A DNA stretch of 64,000 nucleotides from Nitrososphaerota archaeon (GTDB taxonomy: Archaea > Thermoproteota > EX4484-205 > JAAOZP01). Of the stretch, positions 35,897 through 55,752 are shown one piece after another (the stretch's first letter is position 1; every line of letters begins with the position of its first letter). A program made the translations under genes and the position numbers. The notes beneath the pieces were generated by a model. The model worked only from the letters and a program-made list of their open reading frames with translations. It ran no database searches and was not told the DNA's origin. The stretch is from NCBI GenBank assembly GCA_011605725.1, contig JAAOZP010000003.1, forward strand, positions 9,032-73,031, given 5' to 3'.

Positions 35897-37192
35897 TCAT
35901 GATTCGAGTAGCCATTTCCACAAGGGTAGGAACCTAATCCTCCTGCCATCATGCTTCTCCACTCCTTCATAGTCCCAAGTGATCACGGTTAGGTCGCTAC
36001 AGTCCAGCTCCTTAGAAGCCTTCACTAGCGCGCTTATTTCCCTCTCCTTCGTATCGAAATCCTCTATATTGTAGCATACTTGTATTAATTGCTTAATCTT
36101 TCCACCGCTCTTTATAATGAAGTCCACCTCCTTATTATTGGAGCTGAAATAGAACAAGTTTTCGTTTGGAGTGAAACCTTTCTTCAAGAGTTCTGAGAAA
36201 ACCAGGTTCTCCATAAGCCTGCTCGTGCTTTCAACTCCATTGACGATGAGCAGGCCATTATCCACCAAGTATATCTTTGGAATAGTCTGCTCCACTTCCT
36301 TATAGGACCTAGAATACTTCCTTAAAGTGCATAAAACTAACGAGTCTGAAAAATACTCAACATAGTTGTAAAGAGTGTTCTTACTAACCTTCATCCCCAA
36401 GGATTTAATATAGTTATAAAACTTATGGATTGAAAAATACGTGGACGACACTAAACTCTTAACCATTAATCTAAGGACTCTTATGTTCTTAACCTTGAAC
36501 CTCTCTATTATGTCCCTATAGATAGTAACCTCAAATATTTCCTTCAAGATCTTTTCCCTTTCATTTTCGAATAGTACTACTTCAGGATAGCTTCCCCTCA
36601 TGTATTTCTGAAGGAGATTCAGAAGCATAGCTTTCTTTAAAGAGGAAAGATATTTTTCCGCTTCGAAGCCCTTTGCTCTCAAGAACTCTTTGAAGTTAAA
36701 AGGATAAATGTAGTAGGGAAGAGTCCTTCCCCTTAGACTTGTCGCGACCTCCATGGATAGAAGCTTGGAGGAAGACCCGCTGACATACACTTGAATTCTC
36801 TCGCTATCTACAACGCTGCGCACAAACCTTTCCCAATAAGGGACGTTCTGAACCTCGTCTAGGAAAAGGTAAACCTTTTGCCTCTTATTTTCGGGGTAAA
36901 TCTCGTAAAAAATATTGAGCATGCTCCTTAAATCCTCTATGGTGCAGCCGATTAGCAAGTCGCTTTCAAGGTTAACGTAAAGTATTCTGCTTTTATCAAT
37001 ATTGTTACGCAGTAATTCCCCTATAACCTGAAACATGAAGAACGTTTTACCTGCTCTCCTCGGCCCAATTATAGATATGGCTCTTCTTATCGGAAGATCA
37101 GCTTCAATCCTAAGGTCTCTTTTCACAAGTTTAGGTAACTCGGATTCTTGGAAATCTTTTATCATTCTTATCCAGGTCTCTCGCGTTACCAT
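35897..37192 (-). CDS. AAA+ ATPase of the COG1373 / AAA_14 plus DUF4143 family, paralog of 26989..28269.
   Basis: Walker A IIGPRRAGKTFFMFQV. Walker B LFLDEVQ. Shares its C-terminal region with the paralog (…KQLIQV…ITW.Y…PLWKWL). Confidence 0.75.
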   Translation of the reverse strand: MVTRETWIRMIKDFQESELPKLVKRDLRIEADLPIRRAISIIGPRRAGKTFFMFQVIGELLRNNIDKSRILYVNLESDLLIGCTIEDLRSMLNIFYEIYPENKRQKVYLFLDEVQNVPYWERFVRSVVDSERIQVYVSGSSSKLLSMEVATSLRGRTLPYYIYPFNFKEFLRAKGFEAEKYLSSLKKAMLLNLLQKYMRGSYPEVVLFENEREKILKEIFEVTIYRDIIERFKVKNIRVLRLMVKSLVSSTYFSIHKFYNYIKSLGMKVSKNTLYNYVEYFSDSLVLCTLRKYSRSYKEVEQTIPKIYLVDNGLLIVNGVESTSRLMENLVFSELLKKGFTPNENLFYFSSNNKEVDFIIKSGGKIKQLIQVCYNIEDFDTKEREISALVKASKELDCSDLTVITWDYEGVEKHDGRRIRFLPLWKWLLES

Positions 37193-37671: not shown

Positions 37672-37929
37672 TCAATAAATTTTCTTCCTGTGCCCCACAT
37701 CTATTAGTATAACTTGTTTATCTTTTTCATTAATCGAGTATATTATCCTATAGTCTCCTACGCGTATTCTCCAGAGACCTGAAAGCTCGCCGCTAAGCTT
37801 AGTCCCTGCATGGGGTTTTTCCATCAGTTCTGATAGAATATCAAATACTCTTTCTTGAACGCTTTTTTCAACATTTTTAAAACTTCTCCTAAACCTATTC
37901 GTAACTATCAGCGAGTATTTAGCTTTCAA
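37672..37929 (-). CDS. relE: RelE/ParE-family toxin.
   Basis: …WRIRVGDYRIIYSINEKDKQVILIDVGHRKKIY is the RelE-family C-terminal signature. Confidence 0.7.
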   Translation of the reverse strand: MKAKYSLIVTNRFRRSFKNVEKSVQERVFDILSELMEKPHAGTKLSGELSGLWRIRVGDYRIIYSINEKDKQVILIDVGHRKKIY

Positions 37930-38210: not shown

Positions 38211-38626
38211 TTATCGCGAAATCTTAGCGAGCGCGCGCTCTTTAAGTTTTAGCTCTCCAGACTCGTCTCTCAGATTTAGCAAATCCATGTCAAAAGTAAT
38301 GATGCAACTTGCCTTAGCCTCATAGGCGACATTGAGGAACTTGTCATCATCAGGGTCTCTGCAAAGCTTAAATTCCTCTTTTGGTGCAGTCTTCAAAGCA
38401 CTTCTATAGATCTTATCCAGAATAAGATAGACTCTGGAAAAATCGATTCTATCAGAAACCTTGTTGAATTGGATGGCTTTCAAATACTCCTTAAAAAATG
38501 CTGTCTGAAAATAGCCACTATTAGTTCGCCATTAAGCACCCTGATGAGAATATCCTTCGACGCTCTGCTATCGATGAGTCCAGCTATTAATACAGAAGTA
38601 TCTAAAACTATTTTATCCTCGCCCAC
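38211..38626 (-). pseudogene. vapC: PIN-domain (VapC-like) toxin gene with a frameshift.
   Basis: The N-terminal part (GTG start ~38626) reads VGEDKIVLDTSVLIAGLIDSRASKDILIRVLNGELIVAIF… and stops. The C-terminal part continues in another frame as the 38211..38483 ORF (…DPDDDKFLNVAYEAKASCIITFDMDLL). Confidence 0.5.
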
Positions 38627-39166: not shown

Positions 39167-39188
39167 TTTGTGTCATGAGAAAACTCGT

Positions 39189-40070
39189 ATGTTTCAAACC
39201 ATTCATAAGATGTTCCTAGGAGATTCTAGGAGCATGGATAATGTTGACGACGAGTCTGTGCATCTCATCCTAACCTCCCCGCCCTATTGGAATATTAAGA
39301 AGTATCCTGAGAACCCATGTCAGCTTGGAAACATTTCTGATTACCATCTGTTCCTGTCTGAGCTTAAGAGGGTTGTTGAAGAGTGCTTCAGGGTTCTTGT
39401 TAAAGGCGGGAGGCTGTGCATGGTTGTCGGCGACATCTGCGTGGCTAGGAAGCAGGGTCGCCACCGCGTCATACCCTTTCACTCCCACGTTACCCAGCTA
39501 TGCTTGGACGCTGGTCTAGACTACTTGTCTCCAATAATCCTCTACAAGATTGCTAACGTTACCACTGAGGCTAAGCGGGAAACATATGCTCTAGGAAGAT
39601 ACTTGGGCCCGAACTCGATAATAAAAAACGATATTGAGTACGTGCTCATCTTCAGGAAGCCCGGCGCCTATAGGAGGGTTAACAAGCGTCTCGCAGCTCT
39701 AAGCAGGCTTAGGAAAAACGAGTTTACAGAGTATTTCCGCCAAGTCTGGTGGGTTAACGGTTGCCGCGTAAGCAGCCACCCGGCTCCGTTTTCACTAGAG
39801 CTAGCCAAAAGGCTGGTCAGAATGTTCTCCTATGTTGGAGACACTGTTTTAGACCCGTTCCTAGGCTCCGGGACAACCAGTCTGGCAGCCATCTGTACGC
39901 TTAGAAACTCGATAGGGTATGAGGTTGAGCCCTCATACGTCAAGTCGGCTAGGGATAGGGTTAGAAGAATGCTGGCGAGGAACAATATTCCGCACGCCAT
40001 GGTTAATGAGGAGTATCCTGAGTCGGGGATAGTCTTCAAGGTTAATGGGGTTCCGCTCAGGCCAGGCTAA
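39189..40070 (+). CDS. Beta-class DNA amino-methyltransferase (N4-cytosine or N6-adenine).
   Basis: Motif IV LILTSPPYWN comes before motif I VLDPFLGSGTT, which is the beta-class order. The track starts at TTG 39168, but ATG 39189 fits the TATA spacing better. Confidence 0.8.
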   Translation: MFQTIHKMFLGDSRSMDNVDDESVHLILTSPPYWNIKKYPENPCQLGNISDYHLFLSELKRVVEECFRVLVKGGRLCMVVGDICVARKQGRHRVIPFHSHVTQLCLDAGLDYLSPIILYKIANVTTEAKRETYALGRYLGPNSIIKNDIEYVLIFRKPGAYRRVNKRLAALSRLRKNEFTEYFRQVWWVNGCRVSSHPAPFSLELAKRLVRMFSYVGDTVLDPFLGSGTTSLAAICTLRNSIGYEVEPSYVKSARDRVRRMLARNNIPHAMVNEEYPESGIVFKVNGVPLRPG

Positions 40071-40109
40071 TCCAGTTTTCAAATTTAATTCAACCTAATA
40101 TTTTTTAAT

Positions 40110-41657
40110 GTGAAAACGCTTAATACTGGTGTGAACGGTGAGGAGGATAAGGTTAAGTTATTGGAGAGCAGGCTGGGGGAGCTTGAGCTCGTCGGCTTAA
40201 CTGGAAGCACAACCAAGGTTACAGAGGCCCCGCTGATCCTCCTGGAGAACATGGAGACAAGGGTTAGGGAGGAGGACATAGTGCTCATAGTCAACCGAAG
40301 CTCCTCCGATTATATTCTTGCTGTTTGCAGGAGCGGCATGGGTATTAACGAGAACCTGAGGGTCGGGGGATACAGCCCGGGAATAGCCTACGTGCGCTCG
40401 AAAGGCCAGCCGCCGTCAACAGCCAAGGAGTCCTACCATTTCACACTATCCTTCATAGGATTGCTCACGAGCAGGGGTGTGAAGACTAACAACATAATTG
40501 TTGCACCAGGCTCGAAAGTATATCTTTTCAAGAAGGAGGCGTTGGAGATGAACCCGTTAACGTTCCTAGAACCTAAGGAGCATGTTGAAGGCGGGTACCT
40601 GGCGAATTCCGAGGGAAACTGGCTGATACCATTCGACAAGAAGTATATTCCTTACCATATTGGTGTCTTCGGAGCCACCGGCTCTGGGAAATCGATGCTT
40701 GCAAGGTATCTCTTAATCCCGCTTCTCACGCAGGCTGGCTACGGAGTGCTGGTTTTCGACTGGGAGGGCGTTGACTATTCACCGTTTTTCAAAAACAATA
40801 CCCTATCTATCTGCGATTTCAAAATGGATGTTAATATGGCGGTGGAGTTCCTCATGAGAAACACTGATCACTTTGGCTACGGAGACGAGAACAAACCCGT
40901 TCCCTCAGCAGTTGTAAAAGTAATGTCGAGAAAGCTGAACGACAAGACTTGGTGGGACGAGGTTCCAAAAACCCTGAACAGCGGTGAAGAGCTGCGTGAG
41001 AAACTGAGGGAGGATGCTTTAAGCGAGCTGCGTGAAAGAAGCGGCTGGGAGAGTTACGGCCCCTCTTGGGAGCTTAAACTCAACTATGGTCTCGACCGGG
41101 TTTCGAAGGAAAACTGGGAGCTGCTCTACAGGTCTAGCAAAGGAGTCTCCATCGAGGAGTTCAGGTTTCCAAGCCCAGGGGAGCTTATCGTAATAGATAT
41201 GAGCGAGGTGAGTGGAGAGAGGAAGCTGTCTTTCTTCTCAGAGCTCTGCAGCAGGCTGATATCAATGATGCAGGAGAGAGGCGTGAAGCTTAACCTGGCG
41301 GTGGTGATAGATGAGGCGCCGCAGTACTGTCCATCCGAGCCCAAGGGATTGCAGGGGAAGACGACGGAGCAGTTGAAAGACCTGTGCGCCCTAGGCAGGA
41401 AGCGAAACATGTGCGTAGTGCTCCTCTCCCAGGGAATGGCTGGTGAAATAGGGATTAACGCTGCCGTCAGGAGGAATCTTAACACGCTCTTCATAGGGCA
41501 GATTCATCCTTTGGATATTGAGGAGGCTGGGAAGAGGCTGATGCCCTACGGCGTTAGGCCTGAGGAACTGCTCTTCCTCGAGCCCGGGAAATTCTATCTC
41601 ACGGGCAAGATGAACCCTTCGCCAACACCCCTGCTGATATCGTTCAAAATAGAATAG
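40110..41657 (+). CDS. herA: HerA-like (DUF87/FtsK-HerA superfamily) hexameric ATPase/translocase.
   Basis: Walker A IGVFGATGSGKSM. Walker B LAVVIDEAPQY. Arginine-finger region RKRNMCVVLLSQGMAGEIGINAAVRRNLNTLFIGQ. N-terminal HAS-barrel-like region. The start lies 40 bp after the methyltransferase stop. Confidence 0.7.
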   Translation: MKTLNTGVNGEEDKVKLLESRLGELELVGLTGSTTKVTEAPLILLENMETRVREEDIVLIVNRSSSDYILAVCRSGMGINENLRVGGYSPGIAYVRSKGQPPSTAKESYHFTLSFIGLLTSRGVKTNNIIVAPGSKVYLFKKEALEMNPLTFLEPKEHVEGGYLANSEGNWLIPFDKKYIPYHIGVFGATGSGKSMLARYLLIPLLTQAGYGVLVFDWEGVDYSPFFKNNTLSICDFKMDVNMAVEFLMRNTDHFGYGDENKPVPSAVVKVMSRKLNDKTWWDEVPKTLNSGEELREKLREDALSELRERSGWESYGPSWELKLNYGLDRVSKENWELLYRSSKGVSIEEFRFPSPGELIVIDMSEVSGERKLSFFSELCSRLISMMQERGVKLNLAVVIDEAPQYCPSEPKGLQGKTTEQLKDLCALGRKRNMCVVLLSQGMAGEIGINAAVRRNLNTLFIGQIHPLDIEEAGKRLMPYGVRPEELLFLEPGKFYLTGKMNPSPTPLLISFKIE

Positions 41658-41667
41658 GTGTTTAGGA

Positions 41668-42858
41668 ATGTCTTCAGAGGAGAACCCGCTTCTCACTCTT
41701 CCAAGACCCATAGTGGACGCGCTTTTCTCAAGCGCTGAGAAAGAGGCTGGGAACGTGAAGGAAAGAATCCTAATGCTTGAGAAGATGGCTAGAAAGGTTT
41801 CAGAAGGCTTCAGGTTTAACAGGATTGCTGGAAGCAGAAAAGGCTGTATTGCTGTTGCAGACGGCTCCATGTCTGTCGCGCCCAGCAACCGTATAGGCTC
41901 GCTGTTCGCAATATACTCGGCTGGATACATGGTTTTCGACGACGGTAGGCTTATGGATGAGAACTATTACGCCGGATCCCTAAGCTGGCCCTACGGGGGA
42001 GCCAGAGATTTCAAGACGCTGCTCAAGCTCCTGATGGCTTACGCTGAGAGGAAAGCCGCGTTAGAAGCCTACTGGAAGCATAATCCTGACCTAATCCTGC
42101 TGGACGGCCCGTTCTTCTTCTTCAGGGGATACTGCAGGTATATTCATGCTGTCCAGGTTGAAACGCCTGAGCTTAAAACAGGCCTAGACCTCGTAAGGGA
42201 GGTTAGGGACAAGACCCTGACGCTGATGGAGACGGGTAGAGCAGTATGCGTAATAAGGCGGAGCGGCATCAGAGCTGTAGACGGCTGGCTGATCTACAAT
42301 CAGGGCGAGGAAGCCTGCCTGAGGATTAACGATAAGCATCTTCTCACAATGGTCATGCCGCCGATGACAACATGGTCGTACAGGGACCTATGCGAGGACC
42401 CGCTTCTATACGCTACCTTCTACCGGTTCTACAGGAGGTGGAGGCAAGCCGGAAGGAGGCCTGAAGAACTTGACAAGGAGAAAATCCTTTCACAGTGCCT
42501 GGAGGACTGGAGGAGAAAGTTCCTGAGCGATTTAGACATTGAGTTTGAAAAAGTGCCGAGGTTAGAGAGGCATTACGTAAGGTATACGGGTGCGGCGCCG
42601 CCTTTCGAGATAGAGACACTAGCAAACATGAAGCCGGAGGGCTTCGCCGAGTACTTCGTCGAATTCCACAATCCCGCTACCGGGCTCCCGTACCCGATAG
42701 ACATGGTTGACGAGGCTGTTACACTGCCCAGGGGCTCGACAACAGCCTTCACCGAGGAGGTTGAGGCAAGGCTCATCAAAGACCAGGACATAGAGAATAA
42801 GACGGCAATATCAGACTACTTCACGGTCCTAAACCCACAGAAGAAAGAATACATATAG
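41668..42858 (+). CDS. nurA: NurA-like nuclease (RNase H-like fold).
   Basis: NurA motif I CIAVADGSMSV (the DGS motif). A second aspartate motif, PDLILLDGPFFFF. Size 396 aa. Starts 11 bp after herA. Confidence 0.6.
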   Translation: MSSEENPLLTLPRPIVDALFSSAEKEAGNVKERILMLEKMARKVSEGFRFNRIAGSRKGCIAVADGSMSVAPSNRIGSLFAIYSAGYMVFDDGRLMDENYYAGSLSWPYGGARDFKTLLKLLMAYAERKAALEAYWKHNPDLILLDGPFFFFRGYCRYIHAVQVETPELKTGLDLVREVRDKTLTLMETGRAVCVIRRSGIRAVDGWLIYNQGEEACLRINDKHLLTMVMPPMTTWSYRDLCEDPLLYATFYRFYRRWRQAGRRPEELDKEKILSQCLEDWRRKFLSDLDIEFEKVPRLERHYVRYTGAAPPFEIETLANMKPEGFAEYFVEFHNPATGLPYPIDMVDEAVTLPRGSTTAFTEEVEARLIKDQDIENKTAISDYFTVLNPQKKEYI

Positions 42859-43012: not shown

Positions 43013-43687
43013 ATGAGATATGCGGAACTAGTTAAGGGCATTATAAATTTTGAGAGTTCTTTCTGGTTCGGTGAATATGTATATTTTAAGGCTCTTGAAA
43101 ATCTAGAGAACGTTAGGGCTGACTTAAGTAAGTTAGAAACAAAGGAGCATGTAGAAAGAATAATTAAGATGTTTCTCATTCAATGGGGTAGAATGGGAAG
43201 AACTGTGGATAGGAGAGATTTAAATTGGGAACAACTTACTAAACAATTACGTAGCTCTAAAGAAGCTTTCCAAAAACTACAGGGTAAAAGTATACTAGAT
43301 ATTAATCTTGACGATGAGGAAGTAAGAGATGCTATTAAAAGAACTTATGAGGCAGCAAGCATTAAATACATTGGGGCAACTGCAATCTCAAAGATTTTAC
43401 ATCTGCTAAATCCTGAAATCTACGTAATGTGGGATGAAGATATTAGGATGAAATATAAGGTTGCAAAAAGTGTGAAAGGTTATCTAGATTTTCTAAAGCA
43501 AATGAAGGTGGAAGTAAAAGAGGCATTAGGAGAAGGGGTTAAAGAGAAAGGATGTAGCGAAAAGGAAATCGTGGAAGAAATTTGTAGAGAGCTTCCAAGT
43601 AAAAAGCTTGGCCAAGAATATAGTAGAAAAACTTTGGCTAAACTTATTGATGAATACAACTGGTGGTTGGTCCATTACGGATTTTGA
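43013..43687 (+). CDS. Hypothetical protein encoded in an AT-rich patch.
   Basis: 224-aa ORF. Markedly lower GC than its neighbours. No recognised motif. Confidence 0.4.
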   Translation: MRYAELVKGIINFESSFWFGEYVYFKALENLENVRADLSKLETKEHVERIIKMFLIQWGRMGRTVDRRDLNWEQLTKQLRSSKEAFQKLQGKSILDINLDDEEVRDAIKRTYEAASIKYIGATAISKILHLLNPEIYVMWDEDIRMKYKVAKSVKGYLDFLKQMKVEVKEALGEGVKEKGCSEKEIVEEICRELPSKKLGQEYSRKTLAKLIDEYNWWLVHYGF

Positions 43688-43794: not shown

Positions 43795-44724
43795 CTAGGT
43801 TCCTACTGCTAATTTTTCTTGGCCTCCGCTAAGCCTCCGTATAATGTTCTCTAAGTCCTCGGGCTTGATGGCTTCAATCTTCTCCTTTGTTTCTTCAATG
43901 GCGGAAACCCAGCGTTGAGAACCACTAGTCTTCCTAACAGCTACTATCATATAATAGTAGAATCTATAGGGTGATTTTACCTTAATAGGTATCGTAACCT
44001 CTCTATGCTCTCTGATCTTCTCTAAGTAAAGCTCGAATAGAGCATCTTCATTCTCGCATGCTTTCCACTCATCTGTTCCAAAGAAACGTTGCAGCGTTTC
44101 TATTTCCGCAGAAGTCTTATTTTCTTTTAGAGCACTTCTAGAAACCCCGGTAGATTGATAGTTTATAATAAGATCCCCGGTAAGATTGAAGAGATGTTGC
44201 AGAGTTTCCCACTCTATTTCTAATCCCTCAGGATCTACAAAAGCAAGAAAATGAACGGAGCCAGCTTCTAAACGAGCTTTAGTCATGGCTTTAAATTCTG
44301 GGCCGTTGACATCTTCTTTCCTCACTTTTGCATTCGGAAGTAAATGTCTTAATGCTTCTGCATATTTTTCTTTCTTCTCAAACAGAATCAGCTCGTCGAA
44401 TTTCTTCCTTGGAACCCGGTCTGTGATGAGAGGCGAGCCAAACACGATGAGATTGTTCAAATCGCTTATTCTATCTAAGCCTGGCCCAGCGAAAAGGTCG
44501 ATATAATACGCCTTATCAAAATGGGCTTTAATTATGGCCGTATATATGTCGGCGTAATATGCTAGAATGGCGAGCTTTAAAATAGCCCAGCTTTTACATG
44601 AATAAGCCTCCTTAGTTTTTTGAAATAATTGACTGGCCTCCTGACTCTGACCCCTTAAGGTTTCTATTCTGCGAACCCACCATTCGGAAGGTGTAATTTT
44701 TCTTCTCCGACCAGACGGATTCAT
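43795..44724 (-). CDS. TcmP/RlmJ-like methyltransferase-fold protein (three-Cys-motif partner-like).
   Basis: YYIDLFAGPGLD resembles RlmJ motif I (YLDTHAGAGRY). HFLAFVDPEGLE resembles RlmJ motif IV (LILIDPPYE). Lies 7 bp downstream of a radical SAM gene on the same strand. Confidence 0.5.
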   Translation of the reverse strand: MNPSGRRRKITPSEWWVRRIETLRGQSQEASQLFQKTKEAYSCKSWAILKLAILAYYADIYTAIIKAHFDKAYYIDLFAGPGLDRISDLNNLIVFGSPLITDRVPRKKFDELILFEKKEKYAEALRHLLPNAKVRKEDVNGPEFKAMTKARLEAGSVHFLAFVDPEGLEIEWETLQHLFNLTGDLIINYQSTGVSRSALKENKTSAEIETLQRFFGTDEWKACENEDALFELYLEKIREHREVTIPIKVKSPYRFYYYMIVAVRKTSGSQRWVSAIEETKEKIEAIKPEDLENIIRRLSGGQEKLAVGT

Positions 44725-44730
44725 TTGGAT

Positions 44731-45840
44731 TCACTTAGAGTAGCAATTACAAGTGCCTCGCCTATATGGGATGCCTAGTTTTTCAAGCATCGATACCGTC
44801 TCCTTACAAATACTTACTTTATCATCACCGTAGCCAAAAGCAGAGAGCTTATCCAGCATATACTCATATATCCTTCTCCTTAGTTCAGACGGTAATTTCT
44901 TTCCCCAACCAGTATCTTCTTTAAAGAACTTAGCCCAGCCCATATCTACCCCTGCTTTTTTAGCGTAGTATATTGTTTTCTTTAACCCCCTTGGCGTCCC
45001 AAGTATTATCTTAGCAGGTTCCACCTCAGACATGATTCTGTATAAAATATCTTCATAATGCGTTTCCCAGTCTTCTATAGGGAATATTGGGTCGATCCTT
45101 ATCCTCACCTCATACCCTGTTTCGTAAACCATTTTCGCAGCCTGTATCCTTTGTTCCGGCGGAGCTGCTTTTTTCTCCCAGATTTTTGCAACCTCTACGG
45201 CGTTAATACTCCAAGCGCATACAACCTGTTTCTTAACATGATCAGGCTTATTTAGCAAAAATTTAATACTGTTTGCCCCCGCTTTACTTAGCAGAACGAT
45301 CCTGTGCTTATGCTGCTCTCCAAACTTGTCAACTATTTCACTCATTAAGGGAGGGTTCATCAGGGAATCAGATAATTCGCCGCTGTTGAATAAAGCAGGC
45401 TTGCCACCGTTAAAATGAGGATCGTTAAATGCCTCGTCCAACGCATTGAATACGTAATGTAGTTTCACGTAGCTGGGTTTCATGTTCCCTTTCTTTGTTC
45501 CTCTCAAATAGCAATAAGAGCAATCGAAAGGACAGCCGAAAGCCCATCTCAACTCCCAGAAGGGGCCGCATGCTATGTCTGGAGGAGTTTTCGCGAATAA
45601 TTTCACTATGCCTTGACCGTATTCGGTTCGAAACGGCTTACGAACAGGCTCTTTCACTACGGCTTCAGGATGAGTGATCGACGCAATAATCTTCGGGGGG
45701 AAGAAATCAGGAATCCTCCTGCTCGACTTAGCGATTATTTCCGCCTCTTTCTTCCTTATTGTTCGCCAAGCCTTTAAAGCTGCTTCTCTATGTTTCTCCT
45801 TCTCTGTAAGCATCTTCCCCCTTCCTTTACTGTCTGCCAC
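44731..45840 (-). CDS. Radical SAM protein of the COG1533 (SplB-like 'DNA repair photolyase') type.
   Basis: GCPFDCSYCYL is CxxxCxxC followed by Tyr, as in COG1533 (GC-x-h-x-C-x-YCY). Length 369 aa. Confidence 0.6.
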   Translation of the reverse strand: MADSKGRGKMLTEKEKHREAALKAWRTIRKKEAEIIAKSSRRIPDFFPPKIIASITHPEAVVKEPVRKPFRTEYGQGIVKLFAKTPPDIACGPFWELRWAFGCPFDCSYCYLRGTKKGNMKPSYVKLHYVFNALDEAFNDPHFNGGKPALFNSGELSDSLMNPPLMSEIVDKFGEQHKHRIVLLSKAGANSIKFLLNKPDHVKKQVVCAWSINAVEVAKIWEKKAAPPEQRIQAAKMVYETGYEVRIRIDPIFPIEDWETHYEDILYRIMSEVEPAKIILGTPRGLKKTIYYAKKAGVDMGWAKFFKEDTGWGKKLPSELRRRIYEYMLDKLSAFGYGDDKVSICKETVSMLEKLGIPYRRGTCNCYSK

Positions 45841-45925
45841 TGTCCTTATAAGAACCTACACGGGAAGTTTTTAATCTTTGATTTTTCATTGGAACTTTTA
45901 AATAGCATGAGTTGGTGACTTATGT

Positions 45926-46915
45926 GTGGCTGAACTAGTTGAAAAGAGGGAATCGCCAGAAAAATCCTTATCCATCGGGATATACGTGGGTTTCAAGGCT
46001 GTTAAGACAGGCAACTTATGTTATGATACCCGGGTTTTCGCTCCTCCTGAAGTAAGGGTGGATAGCTATAGAATATCGTATCCGCTCATTAAACCGTCGA
46101 AGCTGACATCAAAAAGCCGTGGAGGCGTCGGTAAGGAGCTGTCGAACGGCTGGGCTTTGAACTTCGCAGTAGGCTGCACCCATGGATGCATCTTCTGTTA
46201 CGTCGACTCGATTCATAAGAGATTTGGAAGACACAGGTATGGGGCGGAGGTGGATGAGAAATGGGGGAACTATTTTCTGATTCCGAATAATATTGAGGAG
46301 GCGGTTGAAAAAACTCCTTGGCACAGGTGGAGGAACCGAGAGGTTCTTTTAAGCTCCACGCATGACCCCTATCTTCCTCAATTAGCGCCTGTTACGAGAA
46401 GAATTCTGGAAAGAGCACTGCCTGCTGGAGTGAAATTCTGCATTCAAACAAGGTCTCCGCTAGTAATGAAGGACTTCGACTTGTTAGCGAAATATGCGAA
46501 AAGCATAAGACTACAGGTGTCGATAGCTACGATGAACGAGGATTTCTCCAGACTGATTGAGCCCAGAGTATCTCCTCCGATGGCTAGGCTAAGCGTGATA
46601 AGAAATGCTAAGGAAGTTGGATTAGAAACCGGAGTCATTTTAGCGCCGATATTCCCACCGACAAGAATGAGGCCAAATGTAGGAGAGGACCTGGATGAAA
46701 TCATGAGGCAACTCGCCTTGATAAAACCAGACCACATATACGGCGAATCCCTGCATATAAGAGGAGGAAACATAAGGCTCATAAAACAAATCCTTGGAGA
46801 AGATTTCAACGATTTAAAGCCATTCGAATCTGAAATAAGGCGCTTGTTCAAATCAAAACTAAAGGAGTACGGTTTGAAGGGAACATGGTGGCTAGAACAC
46901 AGATATTTCAAATAG
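45926..46915 (+). CDS. Second radical SAM protein of the COG1533 (SplB-like) type, transcribed divergently from the first.
   Basis: LNFAVGCTHGCIFCYV is CxxxCxxC-Y. GTG start in the track. Length 329 aa. Confidence 0.6.
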   Translation: MAELVEKRESPEKSLSIGIYVGFKAVKTGNLCYDTRVFAPPEVRVDSYRISYPLIKPSKLTSKSRGGVGKELSNGWALNFAVGCTHGCIFCYVDSIHKRFGRHRYGAEVDEKWGNYFLIPNNIEEAVEKTPWHRWRNREVLLSSTHDPYLPQLAPVTRRILERALPAGVKFCIQTRSPLVMKDFDLLAKYAKSIRLQVSIATMNEDFSRLIEPRVSPPMARLSVIRNAKEVGLETGVILAPIFPPTRMRPNVGEDLDEIMRQLALIKPDHIYGESLHIRGGNIRLIKQILGEDFNDLKPFESEIRRLFKSKLKEYGLKGTWWLEHRYFK

Positions 46916-47111
46916 TTAACAGCTAGATCTCCTTTGTTTCTGGATTTTTCCTCAAATTCAAAAAGTACAATAATGATAAATTAACTTAACCGGGAAATGA
47001 GTTCTTCTCTAGGTGTAGCGTGTGCTCTGAGGATGGTTATTGCATGCAACTCATTATTGTGCAGAGATATTAACGAATTCTGACACTAATTCCTCTATAA
47101 CATTCGGCGCG

Positions 47112-47564
47112 CTAGTGTAGTCCTAGCTTACTTTCAAAGCTCCTAAATTCCTTCTTTTTCTCATAAAGAGCGTTAATCTCTTCCAAAGTTATTATTTTAA
47201 GCTCATCAATTATTTCTTGAATCACTCCAGAAGCAATGTTATAAGCAACACTAGTTTGATCTCTTGTTGTTTCTAAAATTGGTTTTGCATTCCACATATC
47301 CCTGGCATGCTTAAGTTTTGTTAAAGCTTCTTCAAGGTTCCCGCGAATATGCACTTCAAAGACAATGTAAGGATCTGCTCTTTGAAGCCTTTTCCATGCA
47401 ACGTCAATCTTGTAGCCATCAAGCTCTATTTCTTTTATGCTAATCTTTTCTTGAAGTAACCCTATCTGGTGAATTAAGTCTTTAACTGTTTCATGATCCA
47501 GTTCCGTTTTATATGGTATCTTTTTATTCCTTGCTTCATAATTCTCTTCAATTCTCTTGAACAT
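47112..47564 (-). CDS. Hypothetical protein in an AT-rich patch, possibly a small PD-(D/E)xK-like fold.
   Basis: 150 aa. DGYKIDVAWKR…IVFEVHIRG loosely resembles a D…E-x-K arrangement. Weak. Confidence 0.35.
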   Translation of the reverse strand: MFKRIEENYEARNKKIPYKTELDHETVKDLIHQIGLLQEKISIKEIELDGYKIDVAWKRLQRADPYIVFEVHIRGNLEEALTKLKHARDMWNAKPILETTRDQTSVAYNIASGVIQEIIDELKIITLEEINALYEKKKEFRSFESKLGLH

Positions 47565-47636
47565 TTCAGCGCGCGCGCTACTCCGTTGCTTTAAATAAAT
47601 GGCTACTTAAAATATTTAAATGTCGGCTAAAGATAT

Positions 47637-49373
47637 ATGAGTATTATGAGCATCCAAGATCAATTGGGTGAACCCGAGAGTAAGTCTTTTAACATCAGGA
47701 AAATTCTGAACCTTATTAATGAACATGAGTGGAGCCTTTATTTACCTTCTTTTCAAAGATCTTTTCTTTGGGATGAAGAAGATATTAAAAAGTTTCTTGA
47801 ATCAATGCTAAACGGGTATCCTGCTGGATCTATTCTTTTATGGCATCCTAGCAACAAAGGTATTGATCCATTTGCCAGAAAGTTTATAGATACTCGTCCA
47901 GAGCCTGATCACTCTGAAGTTTATTATATTCTGGACGGTCAACAAAGATTAACGGCACTCATGCTTCTCGCAAATGGCTGGAAGCTGGAAAGAGGCAGAA
48001 AAACAATTTCAAGATCTCCGATATCCTACAATCCATCTAAGCAAGGAGGAGAACTTATTAAAGGAATGAAAAGAGGAATCGATCTCTCTAGAGGGATTAA
48101 AGACCGATTAGGTGATGTTAAGGAAAGTCTCAGGCTAAAAAGGGAACTAGGGAGTAATTATAATGATTTCATACGCGCGATAGATAAAATTCTTAATTAC
48201 GAAATGCCTATTTATGTTGTTAAAACTTTTAACGAAACACCAAATATTCTTGGGAAAATGGCAAATATCTTTATAATGGTTAATAGAGCTGGACAGAGAA
48301 TTACCAACGTAGAATTACTCTTATCTTATGCTGCTGGAGTTTTTGATCAAGAAATCGTTAATAATCTAAGAAATTATTATGATGAGATTCAAGAAAAATA
48401 TGGTGAAGAAATCAGTATACAACCTTTCCTAAGATTTGCATTTTCTACTCCTCTAGTTGGGCTTAAGCAACAGGACATAGAAAATGTAGAAAGATTCAAG
48501 GCTTCTGTGAATAAAATAAAAGGGCAATTAACTCTTGATCGTAAAAAGATGTTGAATGAGAAGATTCAAAATGCATCTAAGTCGTTTGGCATAGCCTTAG
48601 ACCTCGTTTTAGAGATTTTCGGGAAGGCAGCCATCGAGCTCTTACCATCGCACATATCGTTAATTCCCATAGCTTGCTATCTTCATATAAATGACATAAG
48701 TAGCGTAAAGGAGCTTAATGAAAATGAGAAAGCATTGATTAAAAAATGGCTTTTGTTGGTGAATTTTAATGGATATTATTCGACAAGACCCTCTGTTAAG
48801 CTTCAGAAAGATATTGAGACTTTAGATCAATCTGGAAGATTTCCATTTCGAGAGTTTCTTGAAAACATTAAAGGAAATAAGCCCTCGGCAATCCGGATAT
48901 CCAAGGATAGCATTGTGGAAGGCTGTAACAAAGACATTCTAAGGAAGCCGAATCTCTCGTATCTTTTCCTACTTTATGTAGCACTAGTAGATAATGAGGC
49001 AAACGATTTGACTGGAAGATTAATAAGGAATCTTAATTTTGAAGAACTTGCTAGGCATCATATATTTCCAAGAGATAAACTCAAAAAAGAATTCAATATT
49101 CCGGAGGAGATATCTGAAGAAGATTATCCTATAAAGGGCATAAATGGGCTCGGAAATATCACTTTAGTACATACAGATGCAAATAGCGAAATATCTGACG
49201 AAGAACCGAAAGAGTATTTTAATAGGTATCGGCGCGAAGACCTTACTAAGCATTTTATTCCCATTAATGACGATAAGCTATGGGATCTTAAAAAGTTTGA
49301 TGATTTTGTTGAAAAAAGAATAGAGAAGATTTATGACTTCCTTAAAGAACGATATCAGGACATAATTGAATAA
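47637..49373 (+). CDS. GmrSD-family type IV (modification-dependent) restriction endonuclease, DUF262 plus DUF1524.
   Basis: DUF262 signature LPSFQRSFLWDEEDIKKF…GSILLW…YILDGQQRLTAL. C-terminal His-Me/HNH-like DUF1524 HHIFPRDKL…GNITLV. Confidence 0.75.
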   Translation: MSIMSIQDQLGEPESKSFNIRKILNLINEHEWSLYLPSFQRSFLWDEEDIKKFLESMLNGYPAGSILLWHPSNKGIDPFARKFIDTRPEPDHSEVYYILDGQQRLTALMLLANGWKLERGRKTISRSPISYNPSKQGGELIKGMKRGIDLSRGIKDRLGDVKESLRLKRELGSNYNDFIRAIDKILNYEMPIYVVKTFNETPNILGKMANIFIMVNRAGQRITNVELLLSYAAGVFDQEIVNNLRNYYDEIQEKYGEEISIQPFLRFAFSTPLVGLKQQDIENVERFKASVNKIKGQLTLDRKKMLNEKIQNASKSFGIALDLVLEIFGKAAIELLPSHISLIPIACYLHINDISSVKELNENEKALIKKWLLLVNFNGYYSTRPSVKLQKDIETLDQSGRFPFREFLENIKGNKPSAIRISKDSIVEGCNKDILRKPNLSYLFLLYVALVDNEANDLTGRLIRNLNFEELARHHIFPRDKLKKEFNIPEEISEEDYPIKGINGLGNITLVHTDANSEISDEEPKEYFNRYRREDLTKHFIPINDDKLWDLKKFDDFVEKRIEKIYDFLKERYQDIIE

Positions 49374-49907: not shown

Positions 49908-52856
49908 CTATGCACCTACATTTGCCTCGAGGCCTGCCACTATATCCTTACCAAGGCTTCTAAGCACCCCTGCAGCATCCTCTGGCTTAACCGGCTCACC
50001 CCATTTAAGCTCAAGCCGCACCTGTAGCGAATCTATTCCCTTAAGCCTCCAGAGGAGATCCAGCATGCTCTTACCCTCCTCTTTCTGCAAATCCTCCTTA
50101 TTAATTTCGAAAGAGATCGTGTAACTAGGAGACCTAGGCCTAGTAATCGACCCCGATAACCTTATGTTGCAATTTCTCTCCGGGCCTAGGCGGGTGAGAA
50201 GGTTTTTAATCTCAAGAAGCTGTCCAGCATCATTAGAGGAAATCTTTAAAATCACACTATTAACTTTAGTAAAACGGTCCCGAATAGCTCTCTTCTCTAT
50301 GTCGTTCGCCAAAGTTTCAACAGAGGATTCTGCAAGCACTATTAAGGTTGGACGCACCTTTTCCTCGGTGGGTTCAATTCCCCTCTTTTCCCCAGTATCT
50401 TTAGACACCTTTTCTTTTCCTCGGAGAAGCTTGTCGGCTTCTTCTGGCGTTAGTAACTCGGTGCGCTCATCCATTAAAATAGACTTCGGAGGATTATCCT
50501 TAGTATATATCATGTCTCCACACTTCAGAACCCATACCCCGTTTTCAACACCTCTTCTAACAGTTTCCAGAAACTTATCCTTAGACGACGAAATTATCAT
50601 ACCGGGTTTCCTGTAGAATTGCTCAAACAGCATCCTTATGCTTACGCTTTCTGCCCCCGCTGGCCAAACATTGGAGAACACGTATACAGGGTCAAGAGGC
50701 TCGTCCTTTACCCTGCCAAGCACGTTAACCAGTATATGCTTAAGCATATCGTAGCCACTGGCACCGGAAGCATAGCCGCTTCCATCTCTTACAGGTATTA
50801 CTTTAACTCCCTCCGCATCATAATATACGAAGTTAGAAAAGGCTCCTCTGATGTAGTCGTGAAGATTCTTTTCCTGTCTTGCCAAATACTCTTCAACATC
50901 GTTTTTTCTATCCTCACTTATACCATACTTCTTTAGGTCTCCCTTCACCATCCTCGCCGCCACTACCTTCCTAGCCACTTGCTTCATGGGTTCAATCCTG
51001 TCTTGAGCAGCAACCAGCAGAAACGTGGAGTTGGTGAACATCCTTGCATGTTGACCATGATCATCCCTATGTTCTAGAAACCTTCTAACTCGCTCTGGAA
51101 CAGTTCTGTCTGATATTACGTATTCATTGGGGTTAAGTATTGCGACTTGAATTACGGGCTCGTCGTCAAAGACTTTGCTTGGAGATGATGGGAAGAGCTC
51201 TACATCTATCCAGTCGGGCGATGAAGGAGTTCGTTTGAAAAGCTCATTCCGCAGCTTCTCCTTGATAACCTCTAGAGTTTCGCTCTCAGTTATGTCCCTC
51301 GACAGAAGGTCGATAACCCTTATTGGCGTCGGCTCTCTAACGAAGACAAATCTCTCGCCTTGCCTGTCGACAAAATGGAAGTTTTCTGAAAGATAATCCA
51401 GCACGATGTCACGTACCCTCATAAAGTGTTCCCTCCTGGCCGGCGTGACTAGTAGCGAAACCAGAAGCTCCGACCTAATGCCTTTATCCCCCTCCTTTCC
51501 AGCAGTTAAGCTATAAAGGTAAATCGTATTACAAGCTCTCCTAACGAGCGGTACTCCCCAGTTTTCCTTAGCCTGCTCATCCAGTTTTTCAGCAACAGCA
51601 GTACCGTCACCCTTCCAAACATCGGCTTCCACAGCATTTCTGAGCTTCTGCTCTCCGATATGCGTGGATAATTCGGCAAGCACATCTCGGTCAGCTAGGT
51701 CCACATGGAAAGGATGGATTAAGGTAGCGTCTTCCTCTTTTTCCGACCACATCTTGCGAACAACCTTAACGAGGAGCCGTAAAGCCCCCCTTGTTCTCTG
51801 AAACCTGTCGAGGGTAGCAACCCTCTCGTACAGGACTCTTATTAGATGAGGGTGAAAAGGATAATAATCCCTTATCATATCTCTGTAAGACTTGCTCTTA
51901 AACTCGTCTGGAACCGTTAGACTCTGGTAGAGCTCGTGATAAGCATCAGCCACATCCTCCGCCACCTTACTGTTAATCTTCTTAAACAGGCGTCTCTTCA
52001 AAATGTGGACGGCATCCTCCTCTTCTATCGGGACTAAGACAAGTTCTTTTCTCGCTACATGGGCCCTCGTCTCAGCCATCGCATTCCTAACAGCATCTGA
52101 AACCGCTTGCCTAGCCTTCTCAGCCTCAGACCTGTAAACGTCCTCAGCAATCGCCATCACTAGGACAGCGTCATCCTTCTCGGACACGGCTAGCACAAGC
52201 CTCTGAATCCACATTATAGTCTTATCAAGCATATCCTTCTCGAGGGCTACGAGCTTCAAGTAGGACGGCAACTCGTCGAGAAGAATCAGGACAGGTCCTC
52301 CCTCAAGAACCTTCTTAATGTCGTCGATACCGGGGACCTTTGCTTCCCGGTCAATACCAGCATAGTCATCATATTTGCCCAACTGCCAGAAGAGGTCGCC
52401 CCATATCGTTCTGATTCTGGTGCCGTCCCTAGTTATGCCATCACTCTTATAGTCCTCACCACTGATAGTCACAACCTTCACGTTCCGAGGAAACCTTAGG
52501 TTCCCCAAGAATTCCGAAACCTCGCTTCTGCCACTGTATTTGGCTGCATAATAGAGAGTGGCAAGAGTATGAGTCTTACCGCCGCCGAAGCCAACGTCGA
52601 GGACGATAACCGGGTTTACACCCTTCTTAGTGCCCGACAGCCTCCCGGCTACACTCTCCAATATCAGCCTCATGTTGCTAGTTAAGTGCGTCGCGGATAG
52701 AAATGAAACAGGGTTATCGTAAGGTGGCTTAGCAGTTCCTGAGACAATCGTGGAGAGCCTGAGAGCCAGGTCGGCATCTGTTAACGAGCCTGATAAAACC
52801 TCTTCCCTGGGAATACAAGCCTCCTCATCCCAGACCCGGGGAACATGTTCCGACAT
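49908..52856 (-). CDS. DUF499-family P-loop ATPase (BrxC/PglY-like).
   Basis: P-loop VIVLDVGFGGGKTHTLATLYY near residue 90 of a 982-aa protein. Its size and the N-terminal position of the P-loop fit DUF499. Confidence 0.6.
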   Translation of the reverse strand: MSEHVPRVWDEEACIPREEVLSGSLTDADLALRLSTIVSGTAKPPYDNPVSFLSATHLTSNMRLILESVAGRLSGTKKGVNPVIVLDVGFGGGKTHTLATLYYAAKYSGRSEVSEFLGNLRFPRNVKVVTISGEDYKSDGITRDGTRIRTIWGDLFWQLGKYDDYAGIDREAKVPGIDDIKKVLEGGPVLILLDELPSYLKLVALEKDMLDKTIMWIQRLVLAVSEKDDAVLVMAIAEDVYRSEAEKARQAVSDAVRNAMAETRAHVARKELVLVPIEEEDAVHILKRRLFKKINSKVAEDVADAYHELYQSLTVPDEFKSKSYRDMIRDYYPFHPHLIRVLYERVATLDRFQRTRGALRLLVKVVRKMWSEKEEDATLIHPFHVDLADRDVLAELSTHIGEQKLRNAVEADVWKGDGTAVAEKLDEQAKENWGVPLVRRACNTIYLYSLTAGKEGDKGIRSELLVSLLVTPARREHFMRVRDIVLDYLSENFHFVDRQGERFVFVREPTPIRVIDLLSRDITESETLEVIKEKLRNELFKRTPSSPDWIDVELFPSSPSKVFDDEPVIQVAILNPNEYVISDRTVPERVRRFLEHRDDHGQHARMFTNSTFLLVAAQDRIEPMKQVARKVVAARMVKGDLKKYGISEDRKNDVEEYLARQEKNLHDYIRGAFSNFVYYDAEGVKVIPVRDGSGYASGASGYDMLKHILVNVLGRVKDEPLDPVYVFSNVWPAGAESVSIRMLFEQFYRKPGMIISSSKDKFLETVRRGVENGVWVLKCGDMIYTKDNPPKSILMDERTELLTPEEADKLLRGKEKVSKDTGEKRGIEPTEEKVRPTLIVLAESSVETLANDIEKRAIRDRFTKVNSVILKISSNDAGQLLEIKNLLTRLGPERNCNIRLSGSITRPRSPSYTISFEINKEDLQKEEGKSMLDLLWRLKGIDSLQVRLELKWGEPVKPEDAAGVLRSLGKDIVAGLEANVGA

Positions 52857-52907
52857 ACGATAATAAGAACCCAGGCAAGCTATTTAAATAGTTAGCCTCA
52901 GTACATT
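52857..52907. promoter_or_regulatory. Bidirectional promoter region with a palindromic TATA-like element (TATTTAAATA, 52881..52890).
   Basis: A 51-bp divergent intergenic region lies between the DUF499 ATPase gene (minus strand) and the DUF1156 methyltransferase gene (plus strand). The palindromic A/T box sits ~24 bp and ~17 bp from the two start codons. Confidence 0.35.
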
Positions 52908-55718: not shown

Positions 55719-55752
55719 GGCATGGAACATAGATGTATAAGCTTGATTAGCA

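Follow-up and report, generated by a model that had tools for sequence, protein, structure and literature searches.

A mobile radical SAM–TcmP cassette with a possible DNA-marking role in a Nitrososphaerota archaeon

Three-Cys-motif partner proteins (TcmP) and the radical SAM (rSAM) enzymes paired with them have so far formed a named, functionless database family. The version of this pairing that involves DUF5131 is a computational defence candidate only, listed in PADLOC as the phage-defence candidates PDC-M30 and PDC-M41 (PMC9477430). Many bacterial phyla have COG1533 "splB" genes under LexA/SOS regulation (PMC4951493), and COG1533 also figures among the hosts of inteins, which are typical of DNA-metabolism proteins (PMC4760082). 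A full-text literature search turned up no work on the function of TcmP, DUF5131, PDC-M30/M41 or of rSAMs resembling spore photoproduct lyase (SPL) in defence, in agreement with a first-pass annotation that had called the TcmP/three-Cys-motif pairing catalogued yet functionally uncharacterised. The search also returned no experiment or paper on the cassette described below, and for this reason its chemistry and phenotype are inferred.

Here, we have analysed 64,000 nt of a Nitrososphaerota archaeon (GCA_011605725.1, contig JAAOZP010000003.1, positions 9,032-73,031 of the forward strand), hereafter the window. The three ORFs singled out by the first-pass annotation are all present (Table 1), as are the motifs it quoted: WAFGCPFDCSYCYLRG in rSAM-A, AVGCTHGCIFCYVDS in rSAM-B, and YYIDLFAGPG (residues 73-82) and FVDPEG (162-167) in the 309-aa protein. 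Their homologs number in the hundreds, at 55-97% identity, so these are real genes and not chance ORFs. The TGA stop of rSAM-A is followed on the same strand, after 6 nt, by the ATG of the TcmP gene, and the two are predicted to be co-transcribed. The starts of the two divergent rSAM genes are separated by 85 bp holding TATA-like A/T-rich elements, TTTAAATA some 20 nt ahead of the start codon of rSAM-B and TTATAAG on the opposite strand, which suggests a putative promoter region. No tRNA genes, Rfam families or meaningful repeats were found in the 64-kb window.

Table 1. Features of the cassette and its immediate surroundings (positions in the window).
Feature	Position	Strand	Description
TcmP (three-Cys-motif partner protein)	43795..44724	-	309 aa, RlmJ-like class I SAM-binding Rossmann protein
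rSAM-A	44731..45840	-	369 aa, SPL-fold radical SAM enzyme; conserved anchor of the cassette
Divergent intergenic region rSAM-A/rSAM-B	45841..45925	.	85 bp; sequence read directly
rSAM-B	45926..46915	+	329 aa, COG1533/"MJ0683-like" radical SAM enzyme, divergent from rSAM-A
Synteny break	46916..47636	.	predicted site of the lost rSAM-B-associated TcmP (A1 HMM and DNA alignment)
150-aa ORF	47112-47564	-	unrelated to TcmP; within the synteny break, then GmrSD

The 309-aa protein is a TcmP, as had been proposed, scoring 89.2 bits against TIGR04474 (cut-off 53) over model positions 2-258 of 263. In a profile alignment it shares with RlmJ the N-terminal Lys and the D-x-x-A-G-x-G, G-S-P-L-I-A and D-P motifs, and the structural matches agree on an RlmJ-like fold: the best is RlmJ itself, with TM-scores of about 0.45-0.5, and the best matches in general are nucleic-acid N-methyltransferases. 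TcmP thus combines a class I Rossmann fold with the RlmJ-type N-terminal motif and SAM-binding motifs I-III. Membership of the RlmJ/DUF519 sequence family was not reached (E=0.02 for the profile against RlmJ chains), and no Pfam family matched at E<=0.01. The invariant residues of alignment A1 are motif I DLFAGPG, then GSPL, E116, D138/N140 and D164-P165, with motifs I-III conserved across 50 family members. Motif IV, V-D-P-E-G in this protein, had been read as a degeneration particular to this copy; its variation is instead family-wide, with a consensus D-P-(E/F/Y/H)-(G/S) in which only D-P is invariant among the 50 members. The RlmJ motif IV is D-P-P/S-Y, its aromatic stacking on the target adenine, and only "IDP" of it is visible in our alignment. 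Since the stacking aromatic of the (D/N/S)PP(Y/F/W) motif is missing from TcmP, methyl transfer by this protein is uncertain. The protein also matches the PADLOC models PDC-M41A (4e-19, 67 bits) and PDC-M30A (3e-4), and the TcmP profile had no matches in phages.

Both rSAM proteins had been described as COG1533-like, a label that suits rSAM-B but not rSAM-A, which is SPL-like (PF20903, 49.5 bits, threshold 27) and reaches only 19 bits on PF04055, below the cut-off of 29.5. rSAM-A has the SPL fold and a C-x3-C-x-Y-C-Y cluster motif; its top fold matches are all rSAM enzymes, and the best, well ahead of the others, is SPL, which acts on DNA. Besides the invariant cluster motif C103-x3-C107-x2-C110, 100-118 representatives show four further invariant cysteines (C91, C345, C364 and C366), which probably form an auxiliary cluster. 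Glu155 aligns with the catalytic H-donor Cys140 of SPL (G. thermodenitrificans, FEAACTSD), and Glu stands at this position in 118 of 123 family representatives. Could rSAM-A then be a genuine SPL ortholog, next to TcmP by coincidence? The above-threshold Pfam SPL match and the JGI label "spore photoproduct lyase" on its homologs would point that way, and the first-pass annotation had named such orthology as what would refute its proposal. We regard it as effectively ruled out: the scores lie below the SPL equivalog cut-offs (62.8 vs 400 for TIGR04070, 32.2 vs 437.6 for TIGR03886), Glu stands in for the catalytic Cys, and TcmP is adjacent in every locus with full flanks (see below); the four extra invariant cysteines and the archaeal, non-sporulating hosts also speak against it.

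The cassette is conserved, mobile and uncharacterised. The analysis, which included a metagenome scan with alignment A2, drew on 63 non-redundant loci anchored on rSAM-A, 25 of which have at least 2.5 kb on both sides of this gene. TcmP lies within 8 kb of rSAM-A in 54 of the 63 and adjoins it in all 25 full-flank loci, where the triad is completed by a second Megacluster-5 rSAM in 19 cases and by DUF5131 in 3. The co-occurrence of the cassette genes is almost obligatory, and the pairing of TcmP with a three-Cys-motif rSAM, already proposed for the window, is genuine. The gap between rSAM-A and TcmP is 0-11 nt in the window and in four other loci (L001, L015, L018, L026). In about 10 of the 63 loci, DUF5131 stands where the second rSAM would be. 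The other neighbour families vary, with only ParB_N recurring (8 loci), and the neighbourhoods are heterogeneous: many loci sit amid housekeeping genes and a minority beside restriction-modification (R-M) or defence genes. rSAM-A is 55-60% identical across archaeal phyla, and five members of its family carry inteins. TcmP and the second rSAM change far more rapidly, the divergence of TcmP tracking that of rSAM-A (Spearman 0.50-0.67) more than that of the second rSAM (0.23). Isolated phages and plasmids gave essentially no matches to rSAM-A; viral contigs gave three loci, two of them duplicates of metagenome loci.

rSAM-B has a different history. It carries the C84-x3-C88-x2-C91 motif, an invariant C172 and, at the position aligned with the SPL catalytic Cys, a Glu (E139). 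It scores 68.8 bits on PF04055 (above 29.5), and stays far below the curated cut-offs for PA0069 (90.0 vs 360), Rv2578c (80.1 vs 430), mobile-pair-B (85.5 vs 410) and the SPL model TIGR03886 (18.6 against 437.6). It matches phrog_13321 at 2.5e-81, and a solo homolog, ORF301 of the virus ATV, is 55% identical. The four cellular homologs examined all have an adjacent TcmP and no rSAM-A, and both rSAM-B plus TcmP and DUF5131 plus TcmP also occur as independent pairs. The rSAM-B plus TcmP version is present on plasmids of cultured haloarchaea and is therefore directly testable. In three close relatives of the locus (L005, L011 and L012, with rSAM-A 94-97% identical), a second TcmP follows rSAM-B where the window has the 150-aa ORF and GmrSD. 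This second TcmP is split in two ORFs; in L011 the A1 HMM matches at 7843-8205 (57 bits) and 8258-8851 (78 bits). The same TcmP model found no match in positions 46800-47800 of the window, and DNA homology to the relatives ends about 80 bp past the rSAM-B stop. The comparison indicates that the locus is a composite in which the TcmP of rSAM-B was lost on replacement by a GmrSD segment. The 150-aa ORF was considered as a TcmP remnant and rejected, having no HMM signal. Two divergent rSAMs are thus present, as the first-pass annotation had it, but they are no simple pair: they are members of two different rSAM plus TcmP units.

What does the cassette act on? Among 149 rSAM-A-like representatives, we found 4 full TcmP-rSAM fusions (TIGR04474, 113-194 bits), 11 fusions of ParB_N and HTH_ParB to rSAM (TIGR00180, up to 127 bits) and one HsdS-rSAM fusion (PF01420 55 bits, MAD5 134 bits). 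The fusion proteins are relatives about 40% identical to rSAM-A, not rSAM-A itself. Because these relatives are fused to TcmP, to ParB or to a type I specificity subunit, their architecture argues for a physical rSAM-TcmP complex that would act on DNA at defined sites. A nucleic-acid target, which had been suggested from gene placement, is thus likely and better supported than before, with DNA indicated by all three kinds of fusion. RNA could be the target if TcmP, like RlmJ, acted on rRNA or tRNA and the rSAMs installed a radical-dependent RNA modification. This is very unlikely, given the fusion of rSAM to the DNA-binding modules ParB_N, HTH_ParB and HsdS, the DNA enzyme that is by far the best structural match of rSAM-A, and a patchy, mobile distribution atypical of enzymes that modify the translation apparatus.

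We propose that the locus is a mobile "radical SAM + TcmP" cassette acting on double-stranded DNA, composed of an rSAM-A to TcmP operon and an rSAM-B bereft of its TcmP, with R-M-like DNA marking as its most likely role; our confidence in this whole is evenly balanced. rSAM-A and TcmP would form a complex, which TcmP (or the ParB or HsdS module in relatives) would bring to particular DNA sites. TcmP would flip out or present a base and might also act as a methyltransferase in its own right, and the 5'-deoxyadenosyl radical of the rSAM, together with the probable auxiliary Fe-S or metal site, would make a covalent change to the presented base. The second rSAM (rSAM-B in the window; another SPL-like rSAM or DUF5131 elsewhere) could carry out a second radical step, or the same job with another specificity. 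The role would most likely be to mark DNA, in an epigenetic-like way, for discriminating self from non-self or for counter-defence. Such an R-M-like role would explain the horizontal movement of the cassette and its frequent place among defence genes. We counted for this proposal the triad, the operon structure, the fusions, the SAM motifs of TcmP, its co-divergence with rSAM-A, the PADLOC candidacy, the defence island and the inteins. We counted against it the high conservation of rSAM-A, which would be expected of a housekeeping or repair enzyme with a fixed substrate more than of a protein caught in an arms race; the heterogeneous neighbourhoods, with no conserved nuclease or "reader", and the near absence from isolated phages and plasmids; the motif IV of TcmP without its aromatic; and the limitation of the fusions to the more distant relatives.

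The conservation of rSAM-A and the many loci amid ordinary genes would also suit DNA repair, in which TcmP would recognise and flip a lesion and the SPL-like rSAMs would reverse it as SPL does, an O2-independent direct reversal of an alkylated, cross-linked or dimerised base. The SPL fold and the LexA/SOS control of COG1533 "splB" genes agree with this; the solo homolog of ATV could mend the viral genome, and the hosts, mostly anaerobes by their organism labels, cannot draw on O2-dependent AlkB or photolyase chemistry. Still, the HsdS and ParB fusions imply a sequence- or site-directed action that lesion repair does not need, the SPL catalytic Cys has given way to Glu, the cassette is mobile and patchily distributed and its partners evolve fast, and the sister pair of TcmP and DUF5131 lies near defence genes often enough to have become a PADLOC candidate. 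Furthermore, archaea make no spores, so the spore photoproduct lesion itself is unlikely. Taken together, we consider repair unlikely.

The surroundings of the cassette bear on defence. The window is a defence island, with Hma, GmrSD, PDC-S01, toxin-antitoxin modules and a methyltransferase-HerA-NurA unit. The first-pass annotation had cast GmrSD as the reader of the cassette product, which did not hold up: its position is that of the second TcmP in the three close relatives, beyond the point where homology ends, and only about 4 of the 63 locus groups have a GmrSD-like neighbour. The suggested link to the methyltransferase-HerA-NurA unit is weak, since the same domain trio adjoins the cassette in one other lineage only (L015), with proteins not detectably homologous to those of the window. 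Nor does any dedicated nuclease or "reader" accompany the cassette in a conserved way. A connection to MADS was rejected, as the "mad2" matches to ParB proteins (mad2 is the MADS methylase) and the "mad8" match to HerA reflect shared domains; Ophion (rSAM+PHP+PRTase) is unrelated to the cassette. A restriction-like system, where TcmP methylates and protects host DNA and the rSAM(s) chemically damage unmethylated invader DNA, would fit the defence island, the PADLOC candidacy of TcmP plus DUF5131 and a TcmP in which every SAM-binding motif and the motif IV D-P are retained; the TcmP-rSAM fusions would be an analogue of type IIG enzymes, and together with the HsdS-rSAM fusion they mirror type IIG and type I architectures. 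We find it quite improbable. Radical SAM enzymes are slow, prone to single turnover and in need of a reductant, which fits rapid restriction poorly, and the motif IV lacks the stacking aromatic; many loci also lie outside defence contexts.

Returning to DNA marking, the analysis extends the TcmP pairing across a single radical-SAM megacluster, to no fewer than three of its branches (SPL-like, COG1533-like and DUF5131). One member of the triad is an SPL-like enzyme, tightly conserved and equipped with an additional 4-Cys site, that occurs across hundreds of genomes, archaeal and in some cases bacterial; natural fusions link it physically with TcmP and with modules that recognise DNA sites. Should the cassette prove to modify DNA, its product would represent a new type of epigenetic or defence chemistry, would give the widespread COG1533 annotation "DNA repair photolyase" a function and would supply biotechnology with a new DNA-modifying enzyme. 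More tentatively, and with less than even confidence, the cassette could represent a new R-M-like class in archaea and bacteria, in which an SPL-fold rSAM with an auxiliary 4-Cys site, guided by TcmP, ParB or HsdS, replaces the methyltransferase or nuclease and makes a novel radical-derived DNA base modification or lesion for self/non-self discrimination.

How does the cassette compare with the known systems? TcmP shares its fold and its N-terminal Lys, SAM and D-P motifs with RlmJ, the 23S rRNA m6A2030 methyltransferase, but, unlike RlmJ, is always paired with or fused to a radical SAM enzyme, in a context that indicates DNA and not rRNA. rSAM-A is 17% identical to SplB (PDB 4FHC), from which it differs by an extra N-terminal helix, a C-terminal CKE...CNC tail, four invariant cysteines absent from the aligned SPL core, an obligatory TcmP partner and its non-sporulating archaeal hosts. 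rSAM-B resembles the COG1533 proteins (PA0069, Rv2578c, the SOS-regulon "splB" and the SFLD "MJ0683-like" group), with its core matched at 80-90 bits. The "radical SAM mobile pair" A/B (TIGR04471/TIGR04470) is likewise made up of two rSAM genes that move jointly on mobile DNA; some of these COG1533 and mobile-pair relatives bear inteins and are regulated by DNA damage; no TcmP partner is described for them in the sources compared, and mobile pair protein A had no match among the cassette proteins. The pair of TcmP and DUF5131 (PF07505, "Gp37/Gp68") has the same TcmP family, above the TIGR04474 cut-off, and DUF5131 is, like the rSAMs of the cassette, a Megacluster-5 radical-SAM-type protein with a C...C-x2-C-Y motif. 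This functionally uncharacterised pair differs from the triad of the window, which lacks DUF5131 and has as partners the SPL-fold rSAM-A, which has a 4-Cys auxiliary site and is covered by no PADLOC model, and the COG1533-type rSAM-B; component B (PDC-M41B/M30B) matches neither of them, whereas the true DUF5131 of L021 matches both models at about 1e-104. Finally, in relatives of rSAM-A the rSAM takes the place that the DNA methyltransferase has in ParB-methyltransferase and type I/IIG R-M proteins, fused to ParB_N/HTH_ParB or HsdS. The proteins of the window are unfused, and catalysis falls to a radical SAM enzyme where those systems use an SN2 methyltransferase or a nuclease.

The genes for TcmP (the three-Cys-motif partner protein of 309 aa) and for the radical SAM enzymes rSAM-A and rSAM-B are real: public data contain numerous homologs of all three (156, 749, and 648 proteins, respectively, at E<=1e-3), with identities typically of 55-60% for the two radical SAM proteins. 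The nearest relatives are in MAGs labelled Nitrososphaerota or Bathyarchaeia, which makes an archaeal origin of the window most probable. The positions read in the first-pass annotation are exact, and its motifs (GCPFDCSYCYL, GCTHGCIFCYV, YIDLFAGPG, and VDPEG) were all found. As it had noticed, TcmP follows rSAM-A closely on the same strand, with 6 nt between the rSAM-A stop codon and its start. The divergent genes rSAM-A and rSAM-B are separated by an A/T-rich spacer of 85 bp.

These genes belong to a recurrent neighborhood. We anchored 80 metagenome loci and some others on rSAM-A, dereplicated them to 63 (<90% identity), and clustered all neighbors within 8 kb into families. Radical SAM proteins were present in every locus (101 proteins), TcmP in 54/63, DUF5131 in 10 (PF07505, 322 bits), and a ParB_N family in 8; no further recurrent family was found within this distance in the 63 loci. 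When at least 2.5 kb was available on both sides (25 loci), TcmP was always present, accompanied by a second radical SAM protein in 19 cases and by DUF5131 in 3. The second radical SAM protein can be SPL-like (~320 aa), rSAM-B-like, or a short 250-aa form matching both PF04055 and DUF5131. The latter family is PADLOC PDC-M41B/M30B, the catalogued TcmP partner. TcmP similarity follows rSAM-A (Spearman 0.50-0.67) more than the second radical SAM protein (0.23).

The assignment of the 309-aa protein to TcmP was borne out by the curated model TIGR04474 (89.2 bits, cut-off 53). The protein also matches the PADLOC candidate PDC-M41A, and a Pfam search found no domain in it. Among 50 aligned family members, K50, G80/G82 (D-L-F-A-G-x-G), G96-S97, D164-P165, and D184 are invariant, and E116 and D138/N140 nearly so; these residues correspond to SAM-binding motifs I-III and a D-P motif IV. 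Since the D-P motif is conserved family-wide, VDPEG is the norm and not a local degeneration. The likeness to RlmJ belongs to TcmP, whose profile aligns weakly (E=0.02) yet colinearly through K50, motifs I-III, and the D-P motif. One could imagine a restriction-like system in which TcmP is the protective methylase, which we regard as quite improbable.

Both radical SAM proteins had been described as COG1533-type. This holds for rSAM-B as a likeness below cut-offs; rSAM-A is SPL-like, passing Pfam SPL with 49.5 bits (threshold 27). Their kinship is limited to the barrel core (hhalign probability 96%). There is virtually no chance that rSAM-A is a true SPL: it widely misses the SPL equivalog cut-off (62.8 vs 400), and the catalytic Cys of wild-type SPL (FEAACTSD) aligns with Glu155, which is invariant in the rSAM-A family. 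Four further cysteines, C91, C345, C364, and C366, are invariant wherever aligned in 124 representatives of 30-60% identity, which suggests an auxiliary Fe-S or metal site. The SPL fold would suit anaerobic DNA repair by the cassette (rSAM-A, TcmP, and a second radical SAM protein or DUF5131), as would the SOS regulation of COG1533 genes (PMC4951493), the many loci in non-defense contexts, and the strong conservation of rSAM-A, far above that of TcmP and the second radical SAM protein (mean normalized bit score of 0.60 vs 0.26 and 0.29). We consider this role unlikely.

The relatives of rSAM-B extend beyond the cassette. The protein matches PF04055 (68.8 bits) and, strongly, phrog_13321, and its resemblance to the COG1533 families (PA0069, Rv2578c, mobile pair B) is sub-threshold. 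ORF301/gp44 of Acidianus two-tailed virus (NC_007409.1, 22197-23102; L093) is 55% identical to it. In this crenarchaeal virus the homolog is solo, flanked by hypothetical genes and a transposase and without TcmP. TcmP adjoins the rSAM-B homolog, without rSAM-A, in all four cellular homologs on long contigs, and haloarchaeal megaplasmids (Halocatena salina; Haloarcula taiwanensis pNYT1) likewise carry TcmP and rSAM-B-like genes without rSAM-A. These cultured haloarchaea could be experimental models. Megacluster-5 of RadicalSAM.org unites SPL, "MJ0683-like" (COG1533), and DUF5131 proteins (PMC9477430). As rSAM-B and TcmP pairs exist without rSAM-A, the basic unit is a Megacluster-5 radical SAM protein plus TcmP, upon which the conserved triad marked by rSAM-A is built. 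In L097-L099 (2548-6873), DUF5131 and a 426-aa weak TcmP-like protein lie side by side with rSAM-B and TcmP, an arrangement that echoes the two-unit layout in the window's clade.

The window itself is a composite from which one TcmP was lost. Three independent assemblies with rSAM-A 94-97% identical to that of the window (L005, L011, L012) have a second TcmP beyond rSAM-B, split into two ORFs (L011, 7843-8851) covering HMM positions 5-95 and 129-308; this second copy could be frameshifted or a pseudogene. In the window, the TcmP HMM has no match beyond rSAM-B. DNA homology to the relatives ends ~80 bp past the rSAM-B stop, and a 150-aa ORF and GmrSD stand where they carry the second TcmP, so GmrSD is a lineage-specific insertion and not the functional partner that had been envisaged. 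GmrSD-like genes also adjoin the cassette elsewhere (L079/L082, L058, L055).

The proposed link to the MTase-HerA-NurA genes is suggestive: in the window's clade they adjoin the cassette, and in L003/L015 TcmP is directly followed by a NurA-HerA-MmeI-type MTase-PLD set that is not homologous to them. The association is not general, and these genes could be a defense unit in their own right. The adjacent 224-aa gene is missing from a 99%-identical locus (L010); in L027, a portion of a 457-aa protein shares 38% identity with its product. The window copy of the cassette lies in a defense island with Hma, GmrSD, PDC-S01, toxin-antitoxin, and MTase-HerA-NurA genes. At the equivalent place L011 has a divergent Hma (26-31% identity). 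Farther away, and unrelated to the cassette, a 1476-aa protein is adjoined by DUF6785/DUF6784 and OPT-transporter-like genes.

Features of the window and of two haloarchaeal megaplasmids
Feature	Position	Strand	Remarks
1476-aa protein	7483-11913		Peptidase_M28, MacB-like periplasmic, and FtsX permease domains
AAA_14 + DUF4143 ATPase	35897-37192		PADLOC single-gene candidate PDC-S01, 3e-99
Small ORFs after PDC-S01 gene	37672-37929, 38211-38483		RelE/ParE-type toxin-like, PIN-like (by eye only)
MTase-HerA-NurA	39168-42858	co-directional	N6/N4 DNA methyltransferase 300 aa, HerA 515 aa (PADLOC mad8-like), NurA 396 aa
224-aa ORF	43013-43687		Between NurA and TcmP; no match in Pfam, NCBIfam, PADLOC, PHROGs
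TcmP, 309 aa	43795-44724	-	ORF read
rSAM-A, 369 aa	44731-45840	-	ORF read
rSAM-B, 329 aa	45926-46915	+	ORF read
150-aa ORF + GmrSD	47112-49373		150-aa ORF without family match; GmrSD DUF262/DUF1524, PADLOC HEC-05 4e-45
Hma (helicase-methylase-ATPase)	49908-59600		Complete system
HmaC/DUF499	49908-52856	-	PADLOC 1.5e-86
HmaB/DUF1156 methylase	52908-55718	+	PADLOC 2e-79
HmaA/DrmD-like SNF2+PLD helicase	56274-59600	-	
TcmP + rSAM-B-like, Halocatena salina (L100)	NZ_CP096021.1 114994-117132		
TcmP + rSAM-B-like, Haloarcula taiwanensis pNYT1 (L101)	CP019156.1 34889-38458		Two divergent rSAM-B-like genes

Gene fusions provide the strongest functional evidence on the cassette. With rSAM-A as the query, an exhaustive HMMER search found 1293 representatives (E<=1e-3), of which 80 reached E<=1e-30. 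Among the 149 proteins retrieved, 4 are full fusions with TcmP (TIGR04474, 113-194 bits), 11 are fused to ParB (some with ParB_N and HTH_ParB; TIGR00180, 127 bits vs a cut-off of 58), and 1 to HsdS (Methylase_S, 55 bits; MAD5, 134 bits). The first imply that TcmP and the rSAM-A-type enzyme work as one unit, and in the others the radical SAM protein is repeatedly tied to modules binding specific DNA sites. Five of the 149 contain inteins (P0370, P0390, P0402, P0418, P0431), inserted in several cases at or just after the CxxxCxxC motif; only P0390 has a LAGLIDADG-like match (22.0 bits, slightly under the Pfam cut-off of 22.5).

The analysis establishes what each protein is and which fold it has, that the genes occur together almost without exception, that fused forms exist, that the catalytic Cys of SPL is missing, that there is an extra Cys set, and that this copy is set in a defense island. 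We propose, with the balance about even, that TcmP and the radical SAM protein form a complex on double-stranded DNA at defined sites. TcmP would flip or present a base, possibly also methylating it, and the radical SAM protein would perform radical chemistry, for R-M-like marking or counter-defense. A role in RNA modification is very unlikely.

The TcmP pairing was rightly described as catalogued (TIGR04474; PADLOC PDC-M30/M41) and functionally uncharacterized: full-text literature searches found no functional study of it, and no description of the rSAM-A family, which is SPL-like and has an auxiliary Cys set, of the triad, or of radical SAM fusions to ParB, HsdS, and TcmP. We tentatively see in the cassette a possible radical-SAM-based R-M-like DNA modification system. 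Relative to known systems, SPL has no counterpart of the auxiliary Fe-S or metal site suggested for the rSAM-A family, and architectures with ParB or HsdS usually carry a DNA methyltransferase where the fused relatives have a radical SAM protein.
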